Below are positions 13,471 through 24,289 of a DNA stretch of 64,000 nt, piece by piece. A program made the translations under genes and the position numbers. Source of the DNA: Escherichia coli (GTDB lineage: Bacteria > Pseudomonadota > Gammaproteobacteria > Enterobacterales > Enterobacteriaceae); assembly GCF_050920415.1 (NCBI RefSeq), contig NZ_CP169309.1; one strand, written 5' to 3'. Position 1 is the stretch's first letter, and every line of letters starts with the position of its first letter. The notes under the pieces are model-generated. The model did no database searches. It had not been told where the DNA came from and saw only the letters and a list, made by a program, of their open reading frames with translations.

Positions 13471-13478
13471 TGGGATTT

Positions 13479-13493
13479 TTGGTCGCACGAGAG
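13479..13493. repeat. Integrase-distal att core repeat (degenerate copy of the proL 3' end)
   Basis: 15/16 match to 24289-24304, with one G missing. Confidence 0.75.
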
Positions 13494-13507
13494 TAGTTTA
13501 ATTGAGT

Positions 13508-13578
13508 GTATAACTAAATGATTTTAAATAATATTCTTTATTCAACTTTTAAATCGTATAACCAAACGTATAACTAAA
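13508..13578 (+). repeat. Three copies of the 11-mer GTATAAC(T/C)AAA (putative integrase arm-type sites)
   Basis: Copies at 13508-13518, 13556-13566 and 13568-13578. The same 11-mer occurs four times at the other end of the island. Confidence 0.6.
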
Positions 13579-13660
13579 ATAATTTGCTGAAAAAGTGTAC
13601 AATTTCAGCAATAATTGCCCTAGCGACTATCATCCTGCTCCCCGGATTTTTTCCGGTTAA

Positions 13661-13897
13661 ATGTTAATCAGGCTGCTGGGCTTTGCCTGTTCGGTAGGTG
13701 TAATGATTATCGTAATACTTTTCCCCCAATGGGGTAAAAGCATCAACCGTAACGGAAGTCGTTATGGTTGCCTTGATGATCTGCGTGGTCATTATGACCA
13801 TTCAGCCAATGACCTTAATCAGAGCTTTTCGCTAAAAATGACGTTGGCCACTCGTCCGAAAAGCACAAAATCCCATCGATTTTTAATTAACGGTTAA
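13661..13897 (+). CDS. Hypothetical small membrane protein
   Basis: 78-aa ORF with a hydrophobic N-terminus (LLGFACSVGVMIIVILF). The stop lies within an ACGGT-TAA-ACCGT hairpin followed by CTTTTT. No recognisable homology. Confidence 0.3.
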   Translation: MLIRLLGFACSVGVMIIVILFPQWGKSINRNGSRYGCLDDLRGHYDHSANDLNQSFSLKMTLATRPKSTKSHRFLING

Positions 13898-13908
13898 ACC
13901 GTCTTTTT

Positions 13909-13943
13909 GTCACGTCGTGTCACTGGTTGTCACTCTCCGTCAC
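13909..13943 (+). promoter_or_regulatory. Four direct GTCAC repeats at exact 10-bp spacing (putative DNA-bending/recombination-directionality or regulator sites)
   Basis: tGTCACgtcg tGTCACtggt tGTCACtctc cGTCACgatc, with GTCAC at 13909, 13919, 13929 and 13939. Confidence 0.5.
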
Positions 13944-14035
13944 GATCTCCGATAGCCTGGCTGCAAATTAAACTACGAAAATTTCGTAGTTCTGACTTCT
14001 TTCAGATAGTCGGTTGCCTGGTTACACGAAAAAAA

Positions 14036-14407
14036 TTACTTCCTGCGTTTATCCCGCTTTGTATGTCCGTGCTGAATGCCCCGCAGTGGATCTTCTTTTT
14101 TCAGGTCGATCCCCATGTCCGTTAGTGTTTTTGTGGCGGCGGTTCTTATGGCACAAATCAGGTCTCTTTCCGGTTCCCGGGTTATGGTTGCCTTCCGGAT
14201 ACATGCCGTTCGTCGTTCCGTTACATACTGACGCGCTTCATCACTTGCCGCCTGTTTCAGTAACTCACCCCAGCGATTAGCCGCCCGTCGCCATAAACCT
14301 TTCGCTTCCAGTTCTTCCGCTTTGTCATCATGCACCATAAGCATAATCCCATTGATACCTGTTAAATCTGAATGGTTGGTTTCCGTTCTTTTGATAATTT
14401 CCCTCAT
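14036..14407 (-). CDS. PerC/Pch-family transcriptional regulator
   Basis: Contains MVHDDKAEELEAKGLWRRAANRWGELL, the signature LE--G-WRRAA-RW of PerC/Pch proteins. The true start may be at the internal Met near 14338-14344. Confidence 0.7.
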   Translation of the reverse strand: MREIIKRTETNHSDLTGINGIMLMVHDDKAEELEAKGLWRRAANRWGELLKQAASDEARQYVTERRTACIRKATITREPERDLICAIRTAATKTLTDMGIDLKKEDPLRGIQHGHTKRDKRRK

Positions 14408-14410
14408 AGC

Positions 14411-14440
14411 TTATTGTATGACAGTACTGTCCCACAATAA
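14411..14440. promoter_or_regulatory. Nested inverted repeat in the divergent perC-like / 99-aa gene control region
   Basis: TTATTGT-atGACAGTACTGTCcc-ACAATAA. The inner 12-bp perfect palindrome is at 14420-14431. Confidence 0.5.
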
Positions 14441-14450
14441 GGAATCACAC

Positions 14451-14750
14451 ATGAGAATGACCAGGCACAAAAAACAGATTCTTGAACTTTACAAACCTGA
14501 GTATCGCGATTGGGTGCGGGTGGAGGCCGGAGATCCGCCTTTTGATGTTCGTGGTGTGACAGTGCTGCTCTATGGTTCCGAATATCAGCGATATCACATA
14601 GAGGCAACCCGACGAACGTTAAACGCTATGGTAAATGATGGGATCCTGTACCGCGTGAAAGTGCGCGAACCCCGCTTTGATGTGCGTATCGGTAGCGATG
14701 GCGCTCACTGTACGGTAATCCGGTACGGGCTGGGTAAATCAGATGATTAA
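14451..14750 (+). CDS. Hypothetical protein (99 aa)
   Basis: An AAGGAA RBS lies 7 nt upstream of ATG 14451 (MRMTRHKKQILELYKPEYRDW...). In frame with ORF 14322-14750. No recognisable family. Confidence 0.5.
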   Translation: MRMTRHKKQILELYKPEYRDWVRVEAGDPPFDVRGVTVLLYGSEYQRYHIEATRRTLNAMVNDGILYRVKVREPRFDVRIGSDGAHCTVIRYGLGKSDD

Positions 14751-14756
14751 ATCACC

Positions 14757-14852
14757 AGAATGTAAATTTACATTCTGCCAGCCACCAGCTACAGAACGCA
14801 AATTTGCACTTTGCTGAAATATTAACGGGTTAGGCCAGAGTGCAAATTTGCA
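14757..14852. promoter_or_regulatory. Three related AT-centred palindromes TG(T/C)AAATTT(A/G)CA
   Basis: AGAATGTAAATTTACATTCT (14757-14776, a perfect 20-mer), GCAAATTTGC (14798-14807) and TGCAAATTTGCA (14841-14852). Confidence 0.55.
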
Positions 14853-14873
14853 TTATGCTTTAACTTCAGCAAG

Positions 14874-15155
14874 TTACCGCCGTAACCGCTCCGGCTTCTT
14901 CCACTGGTACGTTATTTTGGCTTTTTCCCTGTACGTCTGTATCCGGCGACGGTAGGCCAGCATTTCAAGAACGCGGATCCGTATGTCGCGCATATCCGCA
15001 TCATTAAGCTGGATACCATCACGGTGCATCACCTCAGCAACCACACGAACATAATTTTCTGCGGTCACGCTGTCCGGCTGCGTGGCCTGTTCGTCAGCCT
15101 GCTGGTTGATTCCGGCGACGCGGCGGATTAATCGCAGTAGTTCGGTTTCTGTCAT
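14874..15155 (-). CDS. Hypothetical protein (93 aa), downstream of the capsid gene
   Basis: ORF MTETELLRLIRRVAGINQQ... with a basic C-terminus, preceded by conserved cassette A. No family recognised. Confidence 0.5.
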   Translation of the reverse strand: MTETELLRLIRRVAGINQQADEQATQPDSVTAENYVRVVAEVMHRDGIQLNDADMRDIRIRVLEMLAYRRRIQTYREKAKITYQWKKPERLRR

Positions 15156-15194
15156 TGTGCCCCCATCGCGCTGGTTAAGAAAACAAGCTCAGAT

Positions 15195-15408
15195 TTTTTG
15201 TAAAGAATCTGTCACGCTAAAAGATGTCGAACAAAAAACAACCTTCTCCATCATCTTTTTTGCATCGATTACATTAAAAACAACAGGTTACATACATGAT
15301 GATGATGACGATAAAATCACAAAAATGCGCTTTTTTCCGCGCCCGCCCGCCCCGTGTTCATACCCACCCCACCAGGAGGACCCGCAAAAAAGGCGGCTGG
15401 TGCCGCCT
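15195..15408 (-). promoter_or_regulatory. Conserved intergenic cassette A: terminator, G-tract block and putative activator-dependent promoter
   Basis: Read on the minus strand: hairpin GGCGGC-ACCA-GCCGCC followed by T6 (plus-strand coordinates 15385-15407). Then a G-rich block and a 36-nt block (15321-15356) that is 35/36 identical to 17860-17895. Then AGGTTGTTTTTTGTTC (15229-15244), 24 nt, and TTTACA (15199-15204). Confidence 0.55.
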
Positions 15409-15413
15409 TGTTG

Positions 15414-17303
15414 TCATAGTGAATCGGTACCGCCTGATTTGACCATACCGCGATAATCCAGAGCGGCCACACCAGCATCAATACGGACTTTCCAGGCCAC
15501 ACCGTCAACGATGAAACCTTCCTGCTGTTCAAGGTAAGGCTCGTCATTGCCATCAAGATAAGCCACCTCGATTGTGTCCGTTCCCTGTGCGGAAAGCATG
15601 TACCATTGTTTTTCGCTGATATCATCAAGGCGGGGATCGACGATAATATCCAGTAGTTTGTGATACGGGTTAAAGATCCCGCTGTTTTTATCTGCCCCGA
15701 AAGGTGCGGTTGAGTTAATCATCTGCAACGCGCGATCTTCCAGTGCTGCCGGAACTAAAAGGAATTTAGGCGCAATATTCAGCACTTCGCCATTTTTGTC
15801 CTTCTGTGTGCGCATCAGGTGACGTGCTGCACTAAGTCCCGGTGTTGTCAGTCCTGCTTCAATCAGGTTGCTGTGTTTTTTGTCAAACAGCGCTATTCCA
15901 TCAGAAAGTTTTACGTTGCCTGTAAGCACCAGATTAACCAGATTTCCCACCGTTCTTGATGCTGCACGGCCCATAGCCATTGGCACCGTTGATAACTGAT
16001 CAAGGTCATCATTGATTATCGCCTGGCGGGTAATGCTGAAAATATTCCCGTAAGTAGCCAGCGCGATGGGTTCACCGCGATCGCTGGTGGTGATGTATTT
16101 ATATTCTGCCCCTTCCGGCACTTTGTTTAACGTAGAGAAACCATTCAGACCAACGCGGCGGGCTTCACGAAAGTTTGAAAGGGAACCTTTTTTCGTCCAC
16201 TGGCGGAATGTTTCGCCGCTGTGCTCCCAGCCTGCAAGCACTGATTTTTCAGCACCACCAGCAAGGATATCGGTAAAATCGCTGCTGCTGTGGTTGAATG
16301 CCGCGTTTACTATCTGCGAGCGTGTTCCGTAGCTGCCCGTGCTTATACCACGATGGGTTAATGATGCCTGTGCCATATCGAAAAGGCTCATCATGGCGTA
16401 AGGATTACCGCGTTCGGCCCGTTCGTGACCAAGACGCGCATTAAGCCCCTGGCGCATTGCATCGCCGGTTATGTTGCCGTTATCCGTGTACGCGTAGTAA
16501 AGATTTGCGGGGGTGGTTTTATTTGTTGGCGTTGATTCTTTACCCATAGCGAGTAAAAGGCGTTCGCGTGCATTCTCAACGCTACATTCTGAATCAGCAA
16601 GACAACTTATAGCCAGGTCGTTATATCTTCCGTTGAACGTGCCAAACAATTCACGGATGCCGTTAAGTCGTTCCTGTTCGCCACTGCCAGTTTTCTGGCT
16701 GATCATGCTTTTAATTTTTTCCGGCATATTTGAAAAATCTCCGATTCGTTTTGATTCAATTCGGGCCATTGCTGTAATCGCGGGTATAACCTCATCTGCG
16801 AAGCCGTTAGCCTTACACTCATTGCCATCCATCCAGGTTTCCGCCTCCATCATGGCGGTGATTTCCTGTTTGCTCCTGCCCGTTCTTCCGGCGTAGGTTT
16901 CAGCCATCGTGTCGCCCAGCTTGTCCATCAGGTCAGCAAAGCGGCGAACGTCGCCCGACACTCCGGCAGTAACACCACGGGGGGCATGTATCATCATCAT
17001 TGCGTTTTCAGGCATAACGATGTGATCGCCACACATGGCAATAAACGAGGCCATAGAAGCCGCCATGCCTTCAATGTGTACAATTTTCTTTGCCGGATGA
17101 TTTTTCAGGGCGTTATAGATAGCCAGCCCTTCAAAGATGTCGCCACCAGGTGAATGGATGCGAAGATGGATTTCAGACGCATTACCACACGCGTTGATCT
17201 CGTCAGTAAGTGCCGATGCTTTTACACCGTACCCGCCGATCTCGTCATAAATGCGCACATAGACAACATCTGCCATAGCCTTAATGGAAAACCATGTTTT
17301 CAT
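15414..17303 (-). CDS. Prohead (ClpP/S49-like) serine protease fused to an HK97-fold major capsid protein
   Basis: 629 aa. The N-terminal ~180 aa (IYDEIGGYG...RIHSPGGDIFEGLAIYNAL...GMAASMASFIAMCGD) is typical of a phage head-maturation protease. The C-terminal ~300 aa (GAEYKYIT...ATYGNIFSITRQAIINDDLDQL...FLLVPAALE...WYMLSA) is typical of a phage major capsid protein. Confidence 0.8.
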   Translation of the reverse strand: MKTWFSIKAMADVVYVRIYDEIGGYGVKASALTDEINACGNASEIHLRIHSPGGDIFEGLAIYNALKNHPAKKIVHIEGMAASMASFIAMCGDHIVMPENAMMMIHAPRGVTAGVSGDVRRFADLMDKLGDTMAETYAGRTGRSKQEITAMMEAETWMDGNECKANGFADEVIPAITAMARIESKRIGDFSNMPEKIKSMISQKTGSGEQERLNGIRELFGTFNGRYNDLAISCLADSECSVENARERLLLAMGKESTPTNKTTPANLYYAYTDNGNITGDAMRQGLNARLGHERAERGNPYAMMSLFDMAQASLTHRGISTGSYGTRSQIVNAAFNHSSSDFTDILAGGAEKSVLAGWEHSGETFRQWTKKGSLSNFREARRVGLNGFSTLNKVPEGAEYKYITTSDRGEPIALATYGNIFSITRQAIINDDLDQLSTVPMAMGRAASRTVGNLVNLVLTGNVKLSDGIALFDKKHSNLIEAGLTTPGLSAARHLMRTQKDKNGEVLNIAPKFLLVPAALEDRALQMINSTAPFGADKNSGIFNPYHKLLDIIVDPRLDDISEKQWYMLSAQGTDTIEVAYLDGNDEPYLEQQEGFIVDGVAWKVRIDAGVAALDYRGMVKSGGTDSL

Positions 17304-17527
17304 AGCCAGGCTCCTAACGTTGCCCTGTACCAGTATTCAACCGCGCTGCGTGTGATTTGTCCTTTCGTGGGTACCGGCATACCCGGGTGATTGTCTTTGA
17401 TGAACTGCTGATAGCGTTCGATCTTCTCCATAGTTCCGGCGTCTATGTGTACCGTGGCACTTTTATCCGGCTTTCTGGTGTTGTTCTCTGGCATAAATCC
17501 GCCTCCGTTTTGATTAACGGGCATCAT
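17300..17527 (-). CDS. Hypothetical protein translationally coupled to the protease::capsid gene
   Basis: 75-aa ORF. An alternative start, MPENNTRK, lies at 17494. ATGA overlap with the capsid gene start. Confidence 0.5.
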   Translation of the reverse strand: MMPVNQNGGGFMPENNTRKPDKSATVHIDAGTMEKIERYQQFIKDNHPGMPVPTKGQITRSAVEYWYRATLGAWL

Positions 17528-17734
17528 TATTGATCGATAAAAGTAATAGATAAATCATTTTCTACCTGAAAATTAGATTATATTTTTTCTGATTATTCTC
17601 AGAGAGGCAAAGCCATTGACGCATTTTTGCTATTGAAGCAATATTAAGACTCGTCATCCTGGCGATAAAAACTCCTTTGTCGTGTAAAAGCGCCTCCGGT
17701 AACAGCAATCGAGGGCGCTTTTTTTTGCGCCTGT

Positions 17735-17947
17735 TTTTTTGTAAATGTTTTCGGGAACGCTCCAGTGATGAACAAAAAACAACCTGATTCGACACTAAAA
17801 ATTTTTATTCCTCAATATATCAATAACTTATAGTGGTGGTGATGGTGCCATAAAAATCAAAAAATGCGCCTTTTTCCGCGCCCGCCCGCCCCGTGGACAG
17901 GCCCACCAAGCCAGGAGTACCTACAAAAAAGCCGGATTGCTCCGGCT
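17735..17947 (-). promoter_or_regulatory. Conserved intergenic cassette B (paralogue of cassette A)
   Basis: Same order of blocks as cassette A: hairpin AGCCGGA-GCAA-TCCGGCT followed by T6 (17925-17947), the 36-nt block at 17860-17895, AGGTTGTTTTTTGTTC (17770-17785), 24 nt, and TTTACA (17740-17745). Confidence 0.55.
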
Positions 17948-17965
17948 GTGTGCTCACTTCTTCGG

Positions 17966-18217
17966 TTATTCTCCAGCGCTTTTAACGTTGATGGTTGTAA
18001 CCTGTTCCGCTTCGGCAATCTCCCATTCTGTCAGCGTGGCAAAGTTTGCCGCCGCTGTGGTCATGAATGCGCTTATCAGGTCGGGATGTGCTTTCGCGTA
18101 TCCTTCCCCCGTGTTGCGGTCGATGATTTTTATCGCCACTCTCAGCCAGTGCTCTGTAAGGTCAATGGCGCGGTTATGCTGCTTCTTCTGATTATTAAGT
18201 TTTCCTGATGTGCGCAT
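17966..18217 (-). CDS. Hypothetical protein (83 aa)
   Basis: ORF MRTSGKLNNQKKQHNRAIDLTEHWLRV..., followed by the cassette B terminator. No family recognised. Confidence 0.5.
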   Translation of the reverse strand: MRTSGKLNNQKKQHNRAIDLTEHWLRVAIKIIDRNTGEGYAKAHPDLISAFMTTAAANFATLTEWEIAEAEQVTTINVKSAGE

Positions 18218-18261
18218 TTTTATTTTTACCCCCTCGTTTAAAAAGTTTTGAGTTGTGCCTC

Positions 18262-18500
18262 CCCTTGTCTACCTTATCTACCTTACTGGCCACCATGCCA
18301 GTAATGGCGCGGCTTTCAGTGGGGTAGAGTGCTTTTATCCACTATCTACCCCGTATCTACCTCCCTGTCTGATTCAGGTAAAATCAGGTAGAGAGGGTAG
18401 ATAGTAGGTAGACAGTAAAAAAAGGCTGTCTACCCAAGTTAATGTACTGAATTAAATGTATTTTTCTTTACTCAGGTAGACAGGGTAGACAGCCATTGCA
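18262..18500. repeat. Iteron array (putative replication origin of the island)
   Basis: Eleven copies of (G/A)TCTACC or its complement GGTAGA(C/T/G), starting at 18267, 18276, 18322, 18344, 18355, 18387, 18396, 18407, 18428, 18475 and 18484. They flank an AT-rich stretch (18436-18470). The array lies immediately 3' of the primase-helicase gene. Confidence 0.7.
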
Positions 18501-18505
18501 ACAAA

Positions 18506-20254
18506 TTATAAAAACGCGTCGCAATCGTCTGTTGTTATTGCGTTAGTCTGCGTTACTCCTTTAACTTTCCGCGTAATATATTCATGTCCGTAAACTTTCG
18601 CGGCTGGCTTCATAGCCTTGCCAAAGTCATTTACGTTTAGCGGTTTGCTCCTGCCTGCGTACGCCATAAACGCCAGATAGACGCGGTAAAGGCTGTTTCT
18701 GGTCGTGTACTTCACTGAATCGCCACCGCCGCCCATCATCAGGCCGCGTGCTTCCTCCAGAAAATTCAGGAACTGGCAAAACTCAATAACCGGATCCGTC
18801 TGTTGCTTTATTGCCAGTGCTTCATCACCGTCACGCTGTTCAATGAGTAAAGCCCGTGCCTTTTCAGGGTCGGCAAAGTTCGCCAGCAAGCGGCGGATAA
18901 TGACAGGGATTTCAGCCGCGATCTTTTCCGGTAGCTCCCTGTCTTTTTCTGCCTCGCTTACGATGTTATCGAACCGGAATATCACCCGACGACGTGCCAC
19001 ACCTCCGGCCCGTTCGGTGAATATCATCGGATTGTTATTGGTTGCCAGCACCACCGCCCTGATTACCGCCGTAAAACGCTTTTCATATTTCGGGTTAATT
19101 TCCACGGGGTCGCCGCCCGTGATTTTCTTGATGCCCGTTCCTTCGCCTGTATATTTCTGCTGGTCTGCCAGGACGATAAGACGACTCCCGACAACCTGCG
19201 CACGCCCACCAGCATCATCAAGCGATGTCATTTCAGCGCTTACCGTGTTTTGTTTCCCTGCCAGAAGGCTGGCTATGTGTGTGAATGTACTTTTACCGCT
19301 CCCGCCGTCTCCGGTGGCCTCAATAAACATCTGCCAGTCGTACCGGTTCGCCATAATCATGTACAGCGCGGCACATATACGCATCATCTTGCTCGGGTCT
19401 TTTCCGGCTGCGTGCTCAAGCCATTTATGAAAGTTTGGCGCGTTATCGCGGATGTTCTCCCCGGGTGCTGGTGGCGTGTACTCAATGCCGTTGTGCGTGG
19501 TGATCCAGTTCTCCGGCGTGTGCGGGGAAAATTCCCCCGTTTTCAGGTCAAGCGCACCATTGGCGAACGGCAGCAAATCGCCGGACGGCTCGCCCATTGG
19601 TTCGGCAATAACTTTTAACGCTTCCACGGCGTTATTGATTACGCGCTTGCTGAAAGTGGCCCTGTGCTCTGAATAGATAGCCACCATTTCGCGGCTCAGC
19701 TCCATTGTGCTGACCGGACACCATACCCCGCCGCGCCATACGTGAACGATTTCACTTTCAGGATGCACACAAACGCCATCAAAGCGCTCGGCAAGCAGCT
19801 GCGCGCGCTCACTGTCTGCCATTTGTGCCAGTTGCGTATTTTTCTGCTCCGGCATGGTAAGCCCTGCGGCAATATTTTCACGCTCAGCATTCAGATAGCG
19901 CCGCCAGTTTTCACACTTCTGGACGTGCATTCCTTCGGGGTAAAAATTTGCGTCCTGAATATCTGCCGCCGCCAGCTTCTGACCAATCTTTTTGGTCTCC
20001 ACCAAATCCAGTTCTCCGGCCTGGTACAGCCTTACGCGCTTTTTCCCATCCGGAACAATTTTCAGTGCATCAAGTTCGGCAAGCTGATTTGGCCCAAGCC
20101 ACACAGGCGGCACATTATCGCCGGATGCGGGGCCATCCTGCTCCTGCCATTGTTTCGCGTGCGACCAGGCATCACTACCCGCGAAAATAATTACCTCTGT
20201 GTCTTTGTGTTTTATTCCGCGTGGCTGTTTTTTTACGTTCGGTGCCAGTTTCAT
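18506..20254 (-). CDS. P4/D5-family primase-helicase (replication initiator, SF3 NTPase)
   Basis: 582 aa. Walker A GDGGSGKST, Walker B LIVLADQ. A D5_N-like region (LPFANGALDLKTGEFSPHTPENWITT) and a C-terminal DNA-binding-like domain. Confidence 0.8.
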   Translation of the reverse strand: MKLAPNVKKQPRGIKHKDTEVIIFAGSDAWSHAKQWQEQDGPASGDNVPPVWLGPNQLAELDALKIVPDGKKRVRLYQAGELDLVETKKIGQKLAAADIQDANFYPEGMHVQKCENWRRYLNAERENIAAGLTMPEQKNTQLAQMADSERAQLLAERFDGVCVHPESEIVHVWRGGVWCPVSTMELSREMVAIYSEHRATFSKRVINNAVEALKVIAEPMGEPSGDLLPFANGALDLKTGEFSPHTPENWITTHNGIEYTPPAPGENIRDNAPNFHKWLEHAAGKDPSKMMRICAALYMIMANRYDWQMFIEATGDGGSGKSTFTHIASLLAGKQNTVSAEMTSLDDAGGRAQVVGSRLIVLADQQKYTGEGTGIKKITGGDPVEINPKYEKRFTAVIRAVVLATNNNPMIFTERAGGVARRRVIFRFDNIVSEAEKDRELPEKIAAEIPVIIRRLLANFADPEKARALLIEQRDGDEALAIKQQTDPVIEFCQFLNFLEEARGLMMGGGGDSVKYTTRNSLYRVYLAFMAYAGRSKPLNVNDFGKAMKPAAKVYGHEYITRKVKGVTQTNAITTDDCDAFL

Positions 20255-20550
20255 TTTTTACCCCTGAATACGTTAAGCATCTTTTTTATTTCCTGAATAT
20301 TGGCGCGTGCTTTCTCCCTGCTGGTTGGTTTACTGCGGGGCGCTGCCTGTACCAGAGAAAAATCACGCCGAAACTGATAAACAGGCATCACGCAATCATA
20401 TTCGTAGCCTTCACGACGGTAGGTGATGCGCCGTTCTGCCACGCCTTTAATCGTTACCATGCCGCCATATTTATCGCGGTAAATATCGCCGCGCGTAAAT
20501 TTAGGGTGAGTGTTGCCACTAGCAGTTAAGCCAGAAATTTTCTTTTTCAT
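20251..20550 (-). CDS. Small conserved satellite protein (possibly DUF4222-like)
   Basis: 99 aa with an ATGA overlap onto the primase start. The GDIYRDKYGGMVTIKGVAERRITYRREGY motif resembles proteins found upstream of primases in P4-like islands. This comparison is from memory only. Confidence 0.5.
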   Translation of the reverse strand: MKKKISGLTASGNTHPKFTRGDIYRDKYGGMVTIKGVAERRITYRREGYEYDCVMPVYQFRRDFSLVQAAPRSKPTSREKARANIQEIKKMLNVFRGKK

Positions 20551-20566
20551 GGTTTTTATTCCGCGT

Positions 20567-20782
20567 TTATTTTTTATCGTGAATTTCGATCGCTTTATTT
20601 AATTCGGTGATTACCGTATCGAGTAATGAAATAAACGCACCAGCAAGATTAGATTCACGTTCACCTTCCGGCGCATCACTTAAACCATCAAGCCAGATAA
20701 GCAATATTTGCCGCAAGCATTCACTGTTAGTCAGTGCGTTTTCTGCATGGCTCATTAATTTAAAATAACGGTCATCATGCAT
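20567..20782 (-). CDS. Hypothetical protein (71 aa from MHDDRYFK)
   Basis: The start overlaps the stop of the upstream ORF (ATGCATGA). The ORF track offers a longer 86-aa form. Confidence 0.45.
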   Translation of the reverse strand: MHDDRYFKLMSHAENALTNSECLRQILLIWLDGLSDAPEGERESNLAGAFISLLDTVITELNKAIEIHDKK

Positions 20783-21011
20783 GGTGCGCCCCTTGAATAT
20801 CTGCGGTAAGAATTTTGCCTGCCTCATTCAGCGCCATATCAGCACTAAGTTGCATAACCGCCAGCGAATGAGGAACGAAAGCCCCTGCATATTCTGTTTC
20901 ACTGGTGGCGTGCTTATGCGCCATGTCAGCAATAACAGAAATATCAATAAGCGCATCCATCAGCGTTTTGATGGCTTCGGCGGCTGCGTCCGGACGGGGG
21001 TTATTGCACAT
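20775..21011 (-). CDS. Hypothetical protein (78 aa)
   Basis: The ORF overlaps the Icd-like gene stop by 11 nt. Operon context only. Confidence 0.45.
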   Translation of the reverse strand: MCNNPRPDAAAEAIKTLMDALIDISVIADMAHKHATSETEYAGAFVPHSLAVMQLSADMALNEAGKILTADIQGAHHA

Positions 21012-21207
21012 GGCGCACCTCCTGACGAATACGGGCGGCGAATACCATCACGCAGCCAGCCGGGGATTGCTGGCGGGCTTCCTGTTCGCTGGTGGCCTCG
21101 ATGGTAATCACGCGCGGTTGTGCCGTGCTCAGGGCGATAAAACGCCAGATGTATTTATTCAGGTTGTGCGAATCCCGCCCTTGCGGGTGTGTGGTATGAT
21201 TTCTCAT
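21001..21207 (-). CDS. Icd-like (host cell division inhibitor-like) small protein
   Basis: This is the last 68 codons of the 367-aa ORF: MRNHTTHPQGRDSHNLNKYIWRFIALS...ATSEQEARQQSPAGCVMVFAARI. The pattern is recalled from Icd-like proteins of P4-type prophages. Confidence 0.5.
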   Translation of the reverse strand: MRNHTTHPQGRDSHNLNKYIWRFIALSTAQPRVITIEATSEQEARQQSPAGCVMVFAARIRQEVRHVQ

Positions 21208-21291
21208 AGCTGCCTCGATACTCTTTCTATCGTTGGTGGTTAGACGCCCTGCATGTGTGCCACCACTGCGGGGCGTTGCGTTTTTTGATGC

Positions 21292-21347
21292 ACACGTGTT
21301 AAGGTGTACACCTACAAAGCAAAAACATAACGCCATAGGTGTACACA
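21292..21347. promoter_or_regulatory. Palindromic operators upstream of and overlapping the RHH gene start
   Basis: ACACGTGT (21292-21299), AGGTGTACACCT (21302-21313, a perfect 12-mer) and AGGTGTACAC (21338-21347, abutting ATG 21347). Confidence 0.55.
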
Positions 21348-21541
21348 TGTCAACAGTTATTAAGCGCGATAAAAAACAAAAAGGCACAGGAAAGACCCCA
21401 CCGTTCCATATGCGTATAGTTCCTGAATTGAAGGAGCAGTTTGATAACGAAGCCAGTAACGATGGAGTAAGTCTTGCCAACTGGCTTAAAGAGTTGGGGC
21501 GCGCCGAACTAAAGCGACGCGGCATTGAACCTAAAGGCTGA
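21347..21541 (+). CDS. Ribbon-helix-helix (Arc/MetJ/CopG-like) DNA-binding protein
   Basis: 64 aa from MSTVIKRDKKQKG. FHMRIVPELKEQFDNEASNDGVSLANWLKELGRAEL fits a beta-strand/helix/helix RHH pattern. Confidence 0.55.
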   Translation: MSTVIKRDKKQKGTGKTPPFHMRIVPELKEQFDNEASNDGVSLANWLKELGRAELKRRGIEPKG

Positions 21542-21544
21542 TGT

Positions 21545-21664
21545 ATGACCGATAACAAACTTTCTCTAACAGAGAATAAACCATCAGGCTTCTTACCAAG
21601 AAAAATCCTTGATGAGATCAAACGCCGCCAGCGTAAAAAATCCAAAGGAGCAGACACGGAATAG
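21545..21664 (+). CDS. Micro-ORF, 39-aa highly basic peptide
   Basis: MTDNKLSLTENKPSGFLPRKILDEIKRRQRKKSKGADTE. It starts 3 nt after the RHH stop. Found by hand translation, as it falls below the ORF-track cutoff. Confidence 0.3.
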   Translation: MTDNKLSLTENKPSGFLPRKILDEIKRRQRKKSKGADTE

Positions 21665-21667
21665 CTT

Positions 21668-21832
21668 ATGCAACAAATACCATACTGGCTTGGCTCTCTG
21701 TTTGTATTTGCATTTCTCATGAAATATTGCATTAGCAATGAACTTGTCGGTAATGAAAGTGCATGCGCGAGCGCTGAAAAAAATATTCCACTTCTCGTAT
21801 ATGAAAACGAAAGCCCTGTGAACCGCAATTGA
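21668..21832 (+). CDS. Micro-ORF, 54-aa peptide with hydrophobic N-terminus
   Basis: MQQIPYWLGSLFVFAFLMKYCISNE... It starts 3 nt after the previous stop. Found by hand translation. Confidence 0.3.
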   Translation: MQQIPYWLGSLFVFAFLMKYCISNELVGNESACASAEKNIPLLVYENESPVNRN

Positions 21833-22108
21833 GCGAAATTTAATGAATTCACTCTTTGCCCACCAGCCGCAAATGTGGCATTGTTGGCGATGCTCATGCG
21901 TTGGGGATAACGTGTAGCTTGTGTCGAAGGGCCATCGTGACAGGTGGCCTTTTCTTTACCTGTTATCTGGCAATTGTGGCGCTTCGTCACACGGTTGATA
22001 TAATTCCCCTGCACTGATCCATTTTTTTCGCAGCAGGTTAATTGTTCGCAAGGGCGCTCCGGCAACGGGGCGCTTTTTGTTATGTTCATCACGTTACGCC
22101 TCACACCA

Positions 22109-22315
22109 TTACGCAGCCGTTCCGCGCGCTTCTTCCTCGCGCTCTTTCAGCCAGGCCAGCACTTCATCTTCATACCAGCCAACACGACGCAGACCGATTT
22201 TGAAGCCTTTCGGAAATTTTCCGGCGTTGATCATGTCCTGTAGCGAACTGTCTGCCTTGATGCGCAGAATATTTTTTACTTCCTGACGGGTAAGAATTTT
22301 TCTGATTGTTTCCAC
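22109..22315 (-). CDS. alpA: AlpA-family (MerR-like HTH) phage/satellite transcriptional regulator-excisionase
   Basis: 68 aa. ILTRQEVKNILRIKADSSLQDMINAGKFPKGFKIGLRRVGWYEDEVLAWL is the typical AlpA/Xis HTH pattern. Confidence 0.8.
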   Translation of the reverse strand: METIRKILTRQEVKNILRIKADSSLQDMINAGKFPKGFKIGLRRVGWYEDEVLAWLKEREEEARGTAA

Positions 22316-22383
22316 TATGTTTTACCTCGTTAATCCGGCGTATTCCGGTGATAAATACGGTAAAACAGGGCAGGGCGGGAAAA

Positions 22384-22417
22384 ACAGTACCCACCGTTTT
22401 AAAACGGTACCCACTGT
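22384..22417. promoter_or_regulatory. Composite operator upstream of alpA
   Basis: ACAGT-ACCCAC-CGTTTTAAAACG-GT-ACCCAC-TGT. It contains a perfect 16-bp palindrome ACCGTTTTAAAACGGT (22393-22408), direct ACCCAC repeats and outer ACAGT/ACTGT arms. Confidence 0.5.
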
Positions 22418-22485
22418 TTTTTATCTTATTGATTACGCTTTTCTTTCTGCAAAAAAATAGCGACCGCAAGGGGCCGCTATTGTGA

Positions 22486-22728
22486 TTACCGTTTCCACTT
22501 CTTAGGTCGCCCACCGCATTTAAGGCTGGTGGGCCTCAGCACCTTGTCGATGCTTTCAGCCAGATTTTTCGATGCGCCACGCGAGCGCAAAAAACTGACT
22601 ACCTCGTGTTTTGTGGGGGCAGTTGATTTGTCTTCCGGATCGTACGTTGACCAGAATTCACGATTTGCCATTAAGGCCAACTGAAGGCCTTCACCATAGG
22701 CAGGGGATACCTTTTCATTGAAAAACAC
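22486..22728 (-). CDS. Hypothetical protein (80 aa) with basic C-terminal tail
   Basis: ORF between int and alpA ending ...GGRPKKWKR, followed by a hairpin and T7 run. No family recognised. Confidence 0.5.
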   Translation of the reverse strand: MFFNEKVSPAYGEGLQLALMANREFWSTYDPEDKSTAPTKHEVVSFLRSRGASKNLAESIDKVLRPTSLKCGGRPKKWKR

Positions 22729-22829
22729 TCGGATAACTCCTTGAATTTCAAGAGTCGGGTCTCTCTGTATATGGTGATTATACGATGGTTTAGCATGGTT
22801 TGCATCGCTTTTACTGGTTTTTTGTACAG

Positions 22830-24071
22830 TTATACGGCACGGATACCCCTTTTACCACTGGCTATGGTCACTCCGGTTGCTGCGGCCTCTACAAATTCCC
22901 CCCACCAGCGCATAAGCACCACGCGCTTTTCCAGGTAGTTACTTCGGTTATATGCTCGCCTTACCTCGTTCGTGTCCACGTGTGCGAGTGCGGCCTCGAT
23001 TACGTCCGGCTCGAATCCTTCCTCGTTCGCTGCTGTGCTGAATATGGCGCGTAATCCATGAGACACCAGCACGCCAGCGAATCCCATTCGCCGCAATGCT
23101 GCGTTGGCGGTCTGGCTGTTCATAGGCTGCCGTGGGTCTTTCAGGCTAGGGAAAACGTGCTCGCGGTGGTGGCTGATTGGCTTCATGGCCTCCAGTACCG
23201 CCATAGCCTGACTACAAAGCGGGATAACGTGATCACGCCGCATCTTCATGCGTCCGGCGGGGATCGTCCATTGTTGCGCGTCCATGTCGATTTCTTCCCA
23301 GCGTGCTGACGATGCTTCAACCGGACGGGTTACAGTCAGTAGCTGCCATTCAATCAGTAATCTGGTCTGCCGTTCTGTTGCTGATACGGATAAAGCCTGC
23401 ATAAGCTCCGGCAACTGTTCGGGGCGGATTGTTGGCATATGTTTTTTTACAGGGGAGGGGAACGCCTTACGCACATTCATAGCCGGATTGGCATCAATCA
23501 GCCCACTGTTGGCGGCGTAATCCATTACCTCATTAACGCGCTGTAAAACCCGCTTGAGTGTTTCCAGGTTGCCGCGCTCCTTGATGGGTGTAAGCACCTC
23601 AACGAACCTTCGGGCAGTGAGGGTATCTATTGGCGTGTTGCCGATGAACGGGAATACATATTTATCCAGCGAACGCCAGATGTCTTTAATCGTGTTGGGG
23701 GCCAGATTCTGGCTGATTTTCACCTGGTACCATGCCGCCGCCACATTTTCGAACGTGTTCCCTTGTCTTCGGGCCTCTGCCTCTCGTTTTTTCTTCTCAT
23801 GGTCCTGCGGGTCAGTTCCGGCACTGATTAACGTCCTGTACTCGCTACGGCGTTTTCTGGCATCAGCCAGGGAAACATCTTCAAGAGATCCAAAACTCAG
23901 CAATATTCTTTTTTTGTCCGATGGTCGGTAGTAGGAAAATCGCCAGAGTTTTGATCCGGACGGTTTTACCAGGAGAAAAAGCCCACCGCCGTCCTGTAGG
24001 GTGTACTCCTTTTGCGCTGGTCTGGCTGCTTTGATCTGCACTGTGGTTAATGGGGGTGTTTTTCTCGCCAT
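22830..24071 (-). CDS. int: P4/CP4-57-type tyrosine integrase
   Basis: 413 aa from MARKTPPLTTVQIKAARP...GGLFLLVKPSGSKLWRFSY (the N-terminal arm-binding domain typical of P4-type integrases). The catalytic region contains HGLR...ALAH...Y. The gene is adjacent to a tRNA. Confidence 0.9.
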   Translation of the reverse strand: MARKTPPLTTVQIKAARPAQKEYTLQDGGGLFLLVKPSGSKLWRFSYYRPSDKKRILLSFGSLEDVSLADARKRRSEYRTLISAGTDPQDHEKKKREAEARRQGNTFENVAAAWYQVKISQNLAPNTIKDIWRSLDKYVFPFIGNTPIDTLTARRFVEVLTPIKERGNLETLKRVLQRVNEVMDYAANSGLIDANPAMNVRKAFPSPVKKHMPTIRPEQLPELMQALSVSATERQTRLLIEWQLLTVTRPVEASSARWEEIDMDAQQWTIPAGRMKMRRDHVIPLCSQAMAVLEAMKPISHHREHVFPSLKDPRQPMNSQTANAALRRMGFAGVLVSHGLRAIFSTAANEEGFEPDVIEAALAHVDTNEVRRAYNRSNYLEKRVVLMRWWGEFVEAAATGVTIASGKRGIRAV

Positions 24072-24102
24072 ATGTCTATGATTCCACACGAAAAAACAGG
24101 GT

Positions 24103-24158
24103 TTTAGTTATACGGCTTTAGTTATACGCCAGCCCGTATAACTAAACGTATAACTAAA
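24103..24158. repeat. Four copies of the 11-mer GTATAACTAAA (two inverted, two direct), putative integrase arm-type sites
   Basis: Inverted copies at 24103-24113 and 24117-24127. Direct copies at 24136-24146 and 24148-24158. Confidence 0.6.
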
Positions 24159-24208
24159 AAATCCGGCTGATAGCTTATAAATCCGGTGATGTTCGGTGAC
24201 TAAAAACC

Positions 24209-24243
24209 ATAAAAAAACCCGCCAATCAAGTGATTAGCGGGTT
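24209..24243 (-). terminator. Rho-independent terminator downstream of proL, supplied by island DNA
   Basis: On the minus strand: AACCCGC-(14 nt)-GCGGGTT followed by T7. Confidence 0.6.
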
Positions 24244-24289
24244 ATCCCTGTCTTATTCGGTGCTTTCCGGTGATATCCGGTGGGCGATT

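Follow-up and report, generated by a model that had tools for sequence, protein, structure and literature searches.

The island and its repeated element

Why does a G-rich element occur twice in a genomic island of Escherichia coli, once on each side of a capsid gene? The window, by which we mean the whole 64-kb stretch of DNA analyzed here, carries the two copies on its minus strand at 15321-15372 (copy A) and 17860-17910 (copy B), where both sequences quoted by an earlier, sequence-only reading were found. A 25-mer within the element, CACGGGGCGGGCGGGCGCGGAAAAA, is found on the minus strand at 15332-15356 and 17871-17895 and nowhere else in the window. Its chance expectation is 0, with no match at three or fewer mismatches in 100 dinucleotide-preserving shuffles. 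The repeat unit is larger than first noted: the two copies, spaced 2,539 nt apart, align without gaps over 98 nt at 79% identity (15311-15408 and 17850-17947), and with gaps allowed the alignment extends to about 190 nt, starting at a terminator hairpin and ending at GGTTGTTTTTTGTTC. Searches of Rfam, at the gathering threshold over the window and at E ≤ 5 over 14700-18600, returned nothing relevant at either element. The reading that we favor, with a probability of about 85%, is that both elements are complete lambda-type cos sites through which a phage-inducible chromosomal island (PICI) of the EcCICFT073 family would be packaged by helper phages, probably directly and perhaps by two classes of helper.

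The elements lie in a satellite island of about 10.8 kb (13478..24304, minus strand). A search for att sites as exact repeats of at least 12 nt yielded none; the island, inserted at tRNA-Pro, has instead an imperfect repeat (16/17 nt) of the tRNA-Pro(GGG) 3′ end at its boundaries. Its main genes are all on the minus strand. An integrase (22830-24089) is followed by an HTH regulator, an Icd-like remnant, a DUF4222 protein, and a D5_N/DUF5906 primase (18506-20254). After the primase come an iteron cluster (18266-18497), an 83-aa ORF, and copy B, which is separated from the capsid gene by a 75-aa ORF (17300..17527; phrog_4934). The capsid gene encodes a 629-aa fusion of a ClpP-like prohead protease and a major capsid protein (15414..17303), with one of the two elements on each side of it. 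This assignment follows from Pfam (CLP_protease, 3e-33; Phage_capsid_4, 8e-55) and also from the RefSeq annotation of a 99.7% identical island copy in E. coli OkiPb01679. Beyond copy A are a 93-aa ORF (14874..15155; phrog_1561), which starts 197 nt after the conserved core of that element, and a PerC-family gene (14036-14407). The 3.5-kb module was covered over at least 80% of its length in 142 of 5,426 complete E. coli genomes. A search of genome contigs with the capsid protein returned mostly phages and distant islands at no more than 62% identity, with no close E. coli relative.

Several further features of the island and its surroundings were seen. The iteron cluster consists of dense direct and inverted GTCTACC, ATCTACC, and GGGTAGA repeats just downstream of the primase gene, where PICI replication origins have been placed (PMC6092414). 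The 75-aa ORF has an equivalent in the same position in related islands. The small ORFs before the capsid gene (17300-17527 here; also in island L089 and in CFT073, L010 12463-12669) appear by eye to start with a beta strand and then a helix, and their starts, for example, ATVHIDAGTMEKIERY and GVSVYISPDIVKALKE, are reminiscent of ribbon-helix-helix DNA binders; Pfam gave no match for this ORF. Two tandem 41-nt units with an operator-like look, each with a GCAAATTTGC palindrome, occupy 14792-14876, between the 93-aa ORF and a divergent ORF (14451-14750). Near the two island ends, at 24135-24159 and 13555-13579, there is a 25-nt direct repeat, CGTATAAC(T/C)AAACGTATAACTAAAA, which may represent arm-type sites of the integrase. 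An Rfam ribosomal protein L25 leader upstream of rplY (28084-28109, minus strand) is expected in the chromosomal flank.

Lambda-type cos anatomy of both copies

Comparison with phage genomes gave the two copies different closest relatives. For copy A these are the Stx phage VT1-Sakai and several Stx2 phages, whose cos regions match it over 165 nt at about 88% identity; for copy B they are phages 1720a-02 and CP-1639, whose cos regions match it over 164 nt at about 90%. The similarity to helper cos regions that had been proposed as a check of the cos idea was thereby found, at 88 to 90% to cos of lambdoid phages. In VT1-Sakai and 1720a-02, the matching segment lies between Rz and a gene for a 158-aa small terminase, with a lambda-A-like large terminase next in order; in lambdoid phages, cos lies in this interval between Rz and the small terminase gene. 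Thus terS and terL are directly 3′ of cos in the phage homologues, and the island copies have other genes there instead. Weaker phage matches fall at or near the ends of deposited linear genomes. The record of phage cdtI begins with GGGCGGGAGCGTCGCGGAAAAAGG, i.e., at GGGCGGG, and that of mEp460_4F5 with CCACGGGGCGGGAGCGCGGAAAAAGG, 5 nt upstream of GGGCGGG, so that these two deposited starts are 5 nt apart; the lambda record begins with GGGCGGCGACCTCGCGGG (also written GGGCGGCGACCTCGCGGGTTTTCGC). Among the relatives, the tract between GGGCGG and CGCGG is 9 to 12 nt long, and the overhang length of the island sites is therefore a prediction.

Pairwise similarity of the elements to lambda itself was not above that of shuffled sequence, and the link to lambda rests on a cos profile together with a positional alignment. 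The alignment comprised lambda, the two cos sites of EcCICFT073, both window copies, and three phage cos regions. It contains a GGGTCCT block 23 to 24 nt upstream of an ACG/GGGCGG nick region, then a common CGCGG followed by an A or T run, with a cosB-like stretch further downstream. GGGTCCT is the cosQ of lambda (Wieczorek and Feiss, 2001). The cosQ and cosN blocks are equally spaced in lambda, in the EcCICFT073 sites, and in the window copies. The profile, an nhmmer model of cosQ to cosN, was built in this analysis from 25 seed sequences, one of which is probably a false seed. It finds exactly two sites in the window and matches the first 41 to 43 nt of the lambda, cdtI, and mEp460_4F5 records. 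Enterobacterial relatives with a phage layout (cos, terS, terL, portal, capsid) have one profile site, located about 4.5 kb 5′ of the protease-capsid gene, and the same single upstream site is present in many, not all, of the more distant phage-layout relatives.

Lambda cosB has the layout R3, I1, R2 (inverted), R1 (PMC9026076). As a sequence pattern, the same order recurs in both window copies, where repeated CATCAT or CACCAC motifs occur together with an inverted partner and an IHF consensus. Judged on these grounds, the homology of both elements is to the lambda-type cos of lambdoid phages with a Nu1/A-type terminase. The sequence-only reading had raised cos as a weak idea in the style of P2 and P4: both elements appear to be cos sites, but their family is the lambda type.

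The anatomy of copy A, hereafter cos A, can be followed from its 5′ side along the minus strand. A Rho-independent terminator hairpin, GGCGGC-ACCA-GCCGCC followed by T6 (15386..15407), marks the end of the protease-capsid gene directly 5′ of cos A; it was read from the sequence, has a ViennaRNA energy of −14.8 kcal/mol, and is absent from the list of a consensus terminator scan. The cosQ-like heptamer GGGTCCT (15377..15383), placed by alignment with lambda, EcCICFT073 cos1 and cos2, and the phage cos regions, is the same as the lambda block and holds the equivalent position, 24 nt from the GGGCGG tract in cos A and 23 nt in lambda. It is invariant in 12 distinct A-type sites. The G-tract element that first drew attention is the cosN core CACGGGGCGGGCGGGCGCGGAAAAA (15332..15356), within which the cohesive end is predicted to begin at GGGCGGG, from 15352 downward, with nick positions that are likewise predictions. 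In the cosB-like region (15223..15310), part of the stretch shared with VT1-Sakai, there follow an R3-like block, CGTCATCATCATCATG (15295-15310, minus strand), an IHF-like site with one mismatch to WATCAANNNNTTR (15278-15290), an inverted R2-like block, AGATGATGG (15248-15256), and an R1-like block, GGTTGTTTTTTGTTCGACATC (15223-15243, minus strand; also written TTGTTCGACATC). On the plus strand, the IHF-like site reads AAACAACAGGTTA, and the surrounding TAACCTGTTGTTTTTAAT resembles lambda I1. The R3, IHF, R2, and R1 blocks are invariant in the 12 distinct A-type sites, from phages and islands, while the spacers vary.

Copy B, hereafter cos B, has the same parts. Directly 5′ of it is a terminator hairpin, AGCCGGA-GCAA-TCCGGCT followed by T6 (17924..17947, minus strand), which was found by the terminator scan (−13.5 kcal/mol). 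The alignment places AGGTACT, a variant of GGGTCCT, at the cosQ position (17916..17922, minus strand), and the cosN core (17871..17895, minus strand) is the same 25-mer as in cos A. The cosB-like region (17765..17847, minus strand) is of a second type, that of 1720a-02 and CP-1639. It contains an R3-like block, CACCATCACCACCACTA (17831-17847, minus strand), an exact IHF consensus, TATCAATAACTTA (17818-17830, plus strand), an inverted R2-like block, TAGTGTCG (17790-17797), and an R1-like block, GGTTGTTTTTTGTTCATCAC (17765-17784, minus strand; also written TTGTTCATCAC). These four blocks are invariant in eight distinct B-type sites from phages and islands, again with variable spacers.

The variant heptamer led us to consider that cos B has a crippled cosQ and is an initiation-only site. 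This idea was withdrawn because AGGTACT is regular at the cosQ position of phage-layout cos sites in several other genera (Rahnella, Morganella, and Pasteurella), about 4.5 kb upstream of the protease-capsid gene, and because B-type sites of islands carry either heptamer, AGGTACT or GGGTCCT.

Two cosB types and their possible helpers

From the homology, anatomy, phage context, and conservation of the sites we infer cleavage, direct recognition by TerS, and dual-helper use, as follows. When a lambdoid helper prophage is induced, the island would excise and replicate. The small terminase (TerS) of the helper would bind the R sites, and its large terminase (TerL) would nick cosN. Packaging would proceed from cosB toward lower window coordinates and end at a later cos. 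The cosN core is the same at both sites, so that ends made at either site should be mutually cohesive.

A tblastn search of the island with RppA gave no match at E ≤ 1 beyond short chance-level segments, and one with TerS gave only short chance-level segments (best E, 0.24). At Rpp-type sites, rpp lies about 100 bp downstream and cosB is unrelated to that of the helper phage; neither cos in the window is followed by an ORF of 139 to 154 aa, and neither has a cosB of that kind. Each cosB region closely copies that of a phage, and the island lacks a gene for Rpp or TerS; helper terminase in its unmodified form therefore probably recognizes the sites directly.

Why, then, would one island have two such sites? 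The TerS proteins of VT1-Sakai and 1720a-02 are nearly identical from about residue 64 to residue 158, and identical from residue 91, whereas they diverge over residues 1 to 63, the DNA-binding domain. The two cosB types of the island match these two variants of the TerS DNA-binding domain, which suggests that the pair may serve two helper classes, a reading that we hold tentatively, at close to even odds. Across loci, the R3 motif CATCATCATCAT occurs mostly with an APGSN-type TerS, CATCACCAC with a GGHESN-type TerS, and GCTGTCAGCAGCAGG and GGCGGCGGCA with a cdtI-like TerS. This correlation draws on a small number of independent lineages, and one locus breaks it: in island L089, CATCATCATC accompanies a GGH-type TerS-like protein.

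Two cos sites in direct orientation around the capsid gene are also present in other E. coli islands (L089, L090, L092-L096, and L108). L090 has the same two site types as the window island, L089 combines a cdtI-type site with a CATCATCATC-type site, and L088 has three cos sites. The cosN cores of L090 are unlike, GGGCGGAGGGG and GGGCGGGTCGG, so that ends from its different sites would not match. One island that is 100% identical to ours over 4.6 kb differs only in a patch of about 300 bp over the cosB of cos A (85 to 89% identity), which suggests local replacement of the cosB region.

As a separate observation, cos sites that are near-identical in other respects have different centers of the predicted cohesive end. 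A survey of the window, L088, L089, L090, L096, and L003 gave GGGCGGGCGGG, GGGCGGGCGG, GGGCGGAGGGG, GGGCGGGTCGG, GGGCGGGAGG, and GGGCGGGAGCGG. The length of this center also varies, and the two sites of one island can differ.

An alternative is that only one of the sites is a working packaging signal and that the other is a recombination scar or passenger, neutral or mildly harmful, left from acquisition of the protease-capsid module out of a phage head region. The sequence-only reading had called two cos sites 2.5 kb apart odd, but EcCICFT073 provides a precedent with two that are experimentally functional: in deletion experiments, loss of both abolished transfer (PMC6092414). In that island, only cos1 is needed for transfer, and cos2 is dispensable; deletion of cos2 raised transfer (PMC6092414), which means that a second cos need not be beneficial. 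Islands of Kluyvera, Yersinia, Buttiauxella, and Moellerella have a single cos, which is placed like cos A, just 3′ of the capsid gene. Further, phages with this capsid type have cos upstream of the head genes, so a flanking cos could be co-acquired with them. Against a passenger, every cosQ, cosN, R3, IHF, R2, and R1 block is intact in both copies, B-type sites in seven distinct versions of the island show the same degree of conservation as that of the phage, and the two-site layout recurs in otherwise different E. coli islands, such as L089 with its different cosB types. We consider a passenger site unlikely on balance, though it is the strongest of the alternatives.

The reading of both elements as packaging sites can be extended further. 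The island may represent a subfamily of E. coli PICIs that has given up the Rpp packaging redirector and in which a pair of interchangeable cos cassettes, identical to helper sequence but differing in TerS specificity, stand in direct orientation around the protease-capsid gene, serve two Stx-type lambdoid helper classes, and have their range retuned by swaps of short cosB patches; we regard this extended version as possible, with the odds leaning against it. Independently of this extension, the finding points to lambdoid phages with the VT1-Sakai or 1720a-02 terminase type, including Shiga-toxin phages, as likely helpers. If the two cosB types do correspond to two helper classes, the island would have a simple means of widening its helper range without an Rpp protein, which would bear on the spread of such islands and possibly on interference with Stx phages.

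Two groups of relatives deserve mention in their own right. In the single-cos islands of Kluyvera (L011, 7261-7700; L012, 7939-8400), an 85-aa protein encoded 82 nt after cosN has a TerS-like N-terminal DNA-binding motif, GMHRQTVSKRL...PAPGS, and may be a minimal TerS- or Rpp-like factor. In three IMG/VR contigs (L096, 470-13493; L097, 446-3558; L102, 1745-4854), the terL of a VT1-Sakai-type prophage harbors a related PICI (integrase identity to that in the window, only 39%). The order there is cos, terS (98 to 100% identical), terL residues 1 to 337, and the island from its integrase onward; terL residues 330 to 707 were seen on the far side of the island in L096. The satellite thus interrupts the large terminase of its likely helper, and relatives integrated in this way suggest that satellite and helper are very closely associated. 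A literature search of limited reach found no account of multispecificity cos sites in PICIs or of terL as an insertion site for satellites.

Three other readings of the G tracts fare worse. The sequence-only reading had proposed G-quadruplex potential in RNA or in displaced DNA; such structures could regulate transcription or translation of downstream genes. Both copies do have four or more G3+ tracts on the sense strand. The description of the loops as short holds only in part, since no four-tract combination avoids a 9-nt loop (copy A, TATGAACAC; copy B, CCTGTCCAC). The canonical G3+N1-7 motif is therefore absent from both copies, and they fit only when loops of up to 12 nt are allowed. Among the 25 cos seeds, the canonical motif (loops of up to 7 nt) occurs in none and the relaxed one in 11, including both window copies, and the lambda and EcCICFT073 sites have none even with loops of up to 12 nt. 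What is invariant is instead the set of cos features, namely, the cosQ, cosN-flank, and R-site blocks, and each element stands just downstream of a terminator. These observations make a G-quadruplex role very improbable.

A P2-, 186-, or P4-type cos of a P4-like satellite is suggested by nothing beyond the initial impression that a G-rich tract leads into a run of A residues, and its probability is negligible: local alignments with the left ends of P2 and P4 (GGCGAGGCGGGGAAAGCAC..., with a 19-nt cohesive end) scored 10 to 13, no better than shuffles (means of about 10 and maxima of 14 to 20), the cos profile had no match to these ends at E ≤ 10, and all phage matches were lambdoid. Equally negligible is a His- or Thr-type leader-peptide attenuator formed by the CAT and ACC codon runs 3′ of the G tracts, for although CATCATCATCAT (copy A) and ACCATCACCACCACT (copy B) look like the codon runs of his and thr leaders, no leader ORF is in the right frame, the sole start (a GTG in copy A, with no Shine-Dalgarno sequence seen near it) reads Ser codons, and phage cosB regions 5′ of terS conserve these runs as R-site repeats with inverted partners across the IHF site, like the R sites of lambda. 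The element is best read as a packaging signal, neither a G-quadruplex switch nor a P2/P4 end.

Comparison with known satellites and lambda

By sequence and gene content, the window island belongs to the EcCICFT073 family of PICIs. Gene order matches that of EcCICFT073, and the two islands have in common the integrase, HTH regulator, Icd-like protein, DUF4222 protein, primase, 83-aa ORF (97.5% identical), PerC gene, capsid homologue, and 93-aa ORF, which is 83% identical to the last gene of EcCICFT073. Each has two lambda-type cos sites with a terminator-like hairpin before each. For the EcCICFT073 sites we relied on Fillol-Salom et al. (2018, 2019) and a review by Feiss (2022), and we located both in CFT073: they carry lambda's GGGCGGCGACCT and lie about 750 bp apart, inverted around the 144-aa rppA.

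The two islands differ in four respects. The cosN sequence is GGGCGGCGACCT in EcCICFT073 and GGGCGGGCGGG in the window island. The sites of the window island are direct repeats 2.54 kb apart around the protease-capsid fusion, whereas those of EcCICFT073 are inverted around rppA. The cosB of EcCICFT073 resembles no phage cosB and is recognized by RppA and phage TerS together, as a heterodimer (PMC6739421, PMC9026076), whereas the cosB regions in the window are 88 to 90% identical to those of phages. Finally, rpp is present in EcCICFT073 and absent from the window island. Packaging by a helper through cos is a known strategy, and two sites have a direct precedent. The arrangement for which we found no description, with phage-type cosB in two variants as direct repeats around a capsid gene and no Rpp, is slightly unusual.

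By published description, SaPIbov5 of Staphylococcus aureus is a functional analogue, a satellite with its helper's own cos and the capsid homologue Ccm (PMC6092414), in an unrelated lineage and host. The cf-PICIs, such as EcCIEDL933, likewise encode a capsid protein and protease, but they also encode TerL, TerS, portal, and head-tail connectors, whereas the window island has only the protease-capsid fusion; because it lacks TerL, portal, and connectors, it is not a capsid-forming PICI. With lambda cos the two sites share the order and spacing of subsites, the GGGTCCT block, the ACGGGGCGG...CGCGG nick region, an IHF-type site resembling I1, and R-like repeats of which the middle one is inverted. 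They differ from it in the sequence of the overhang and of the R sites, and no terS lies downstream of the island copies. Their nearest phage relatives are VT1-Sakai, 1720a-02, mEp460, and cdtI rather than lambda itself.
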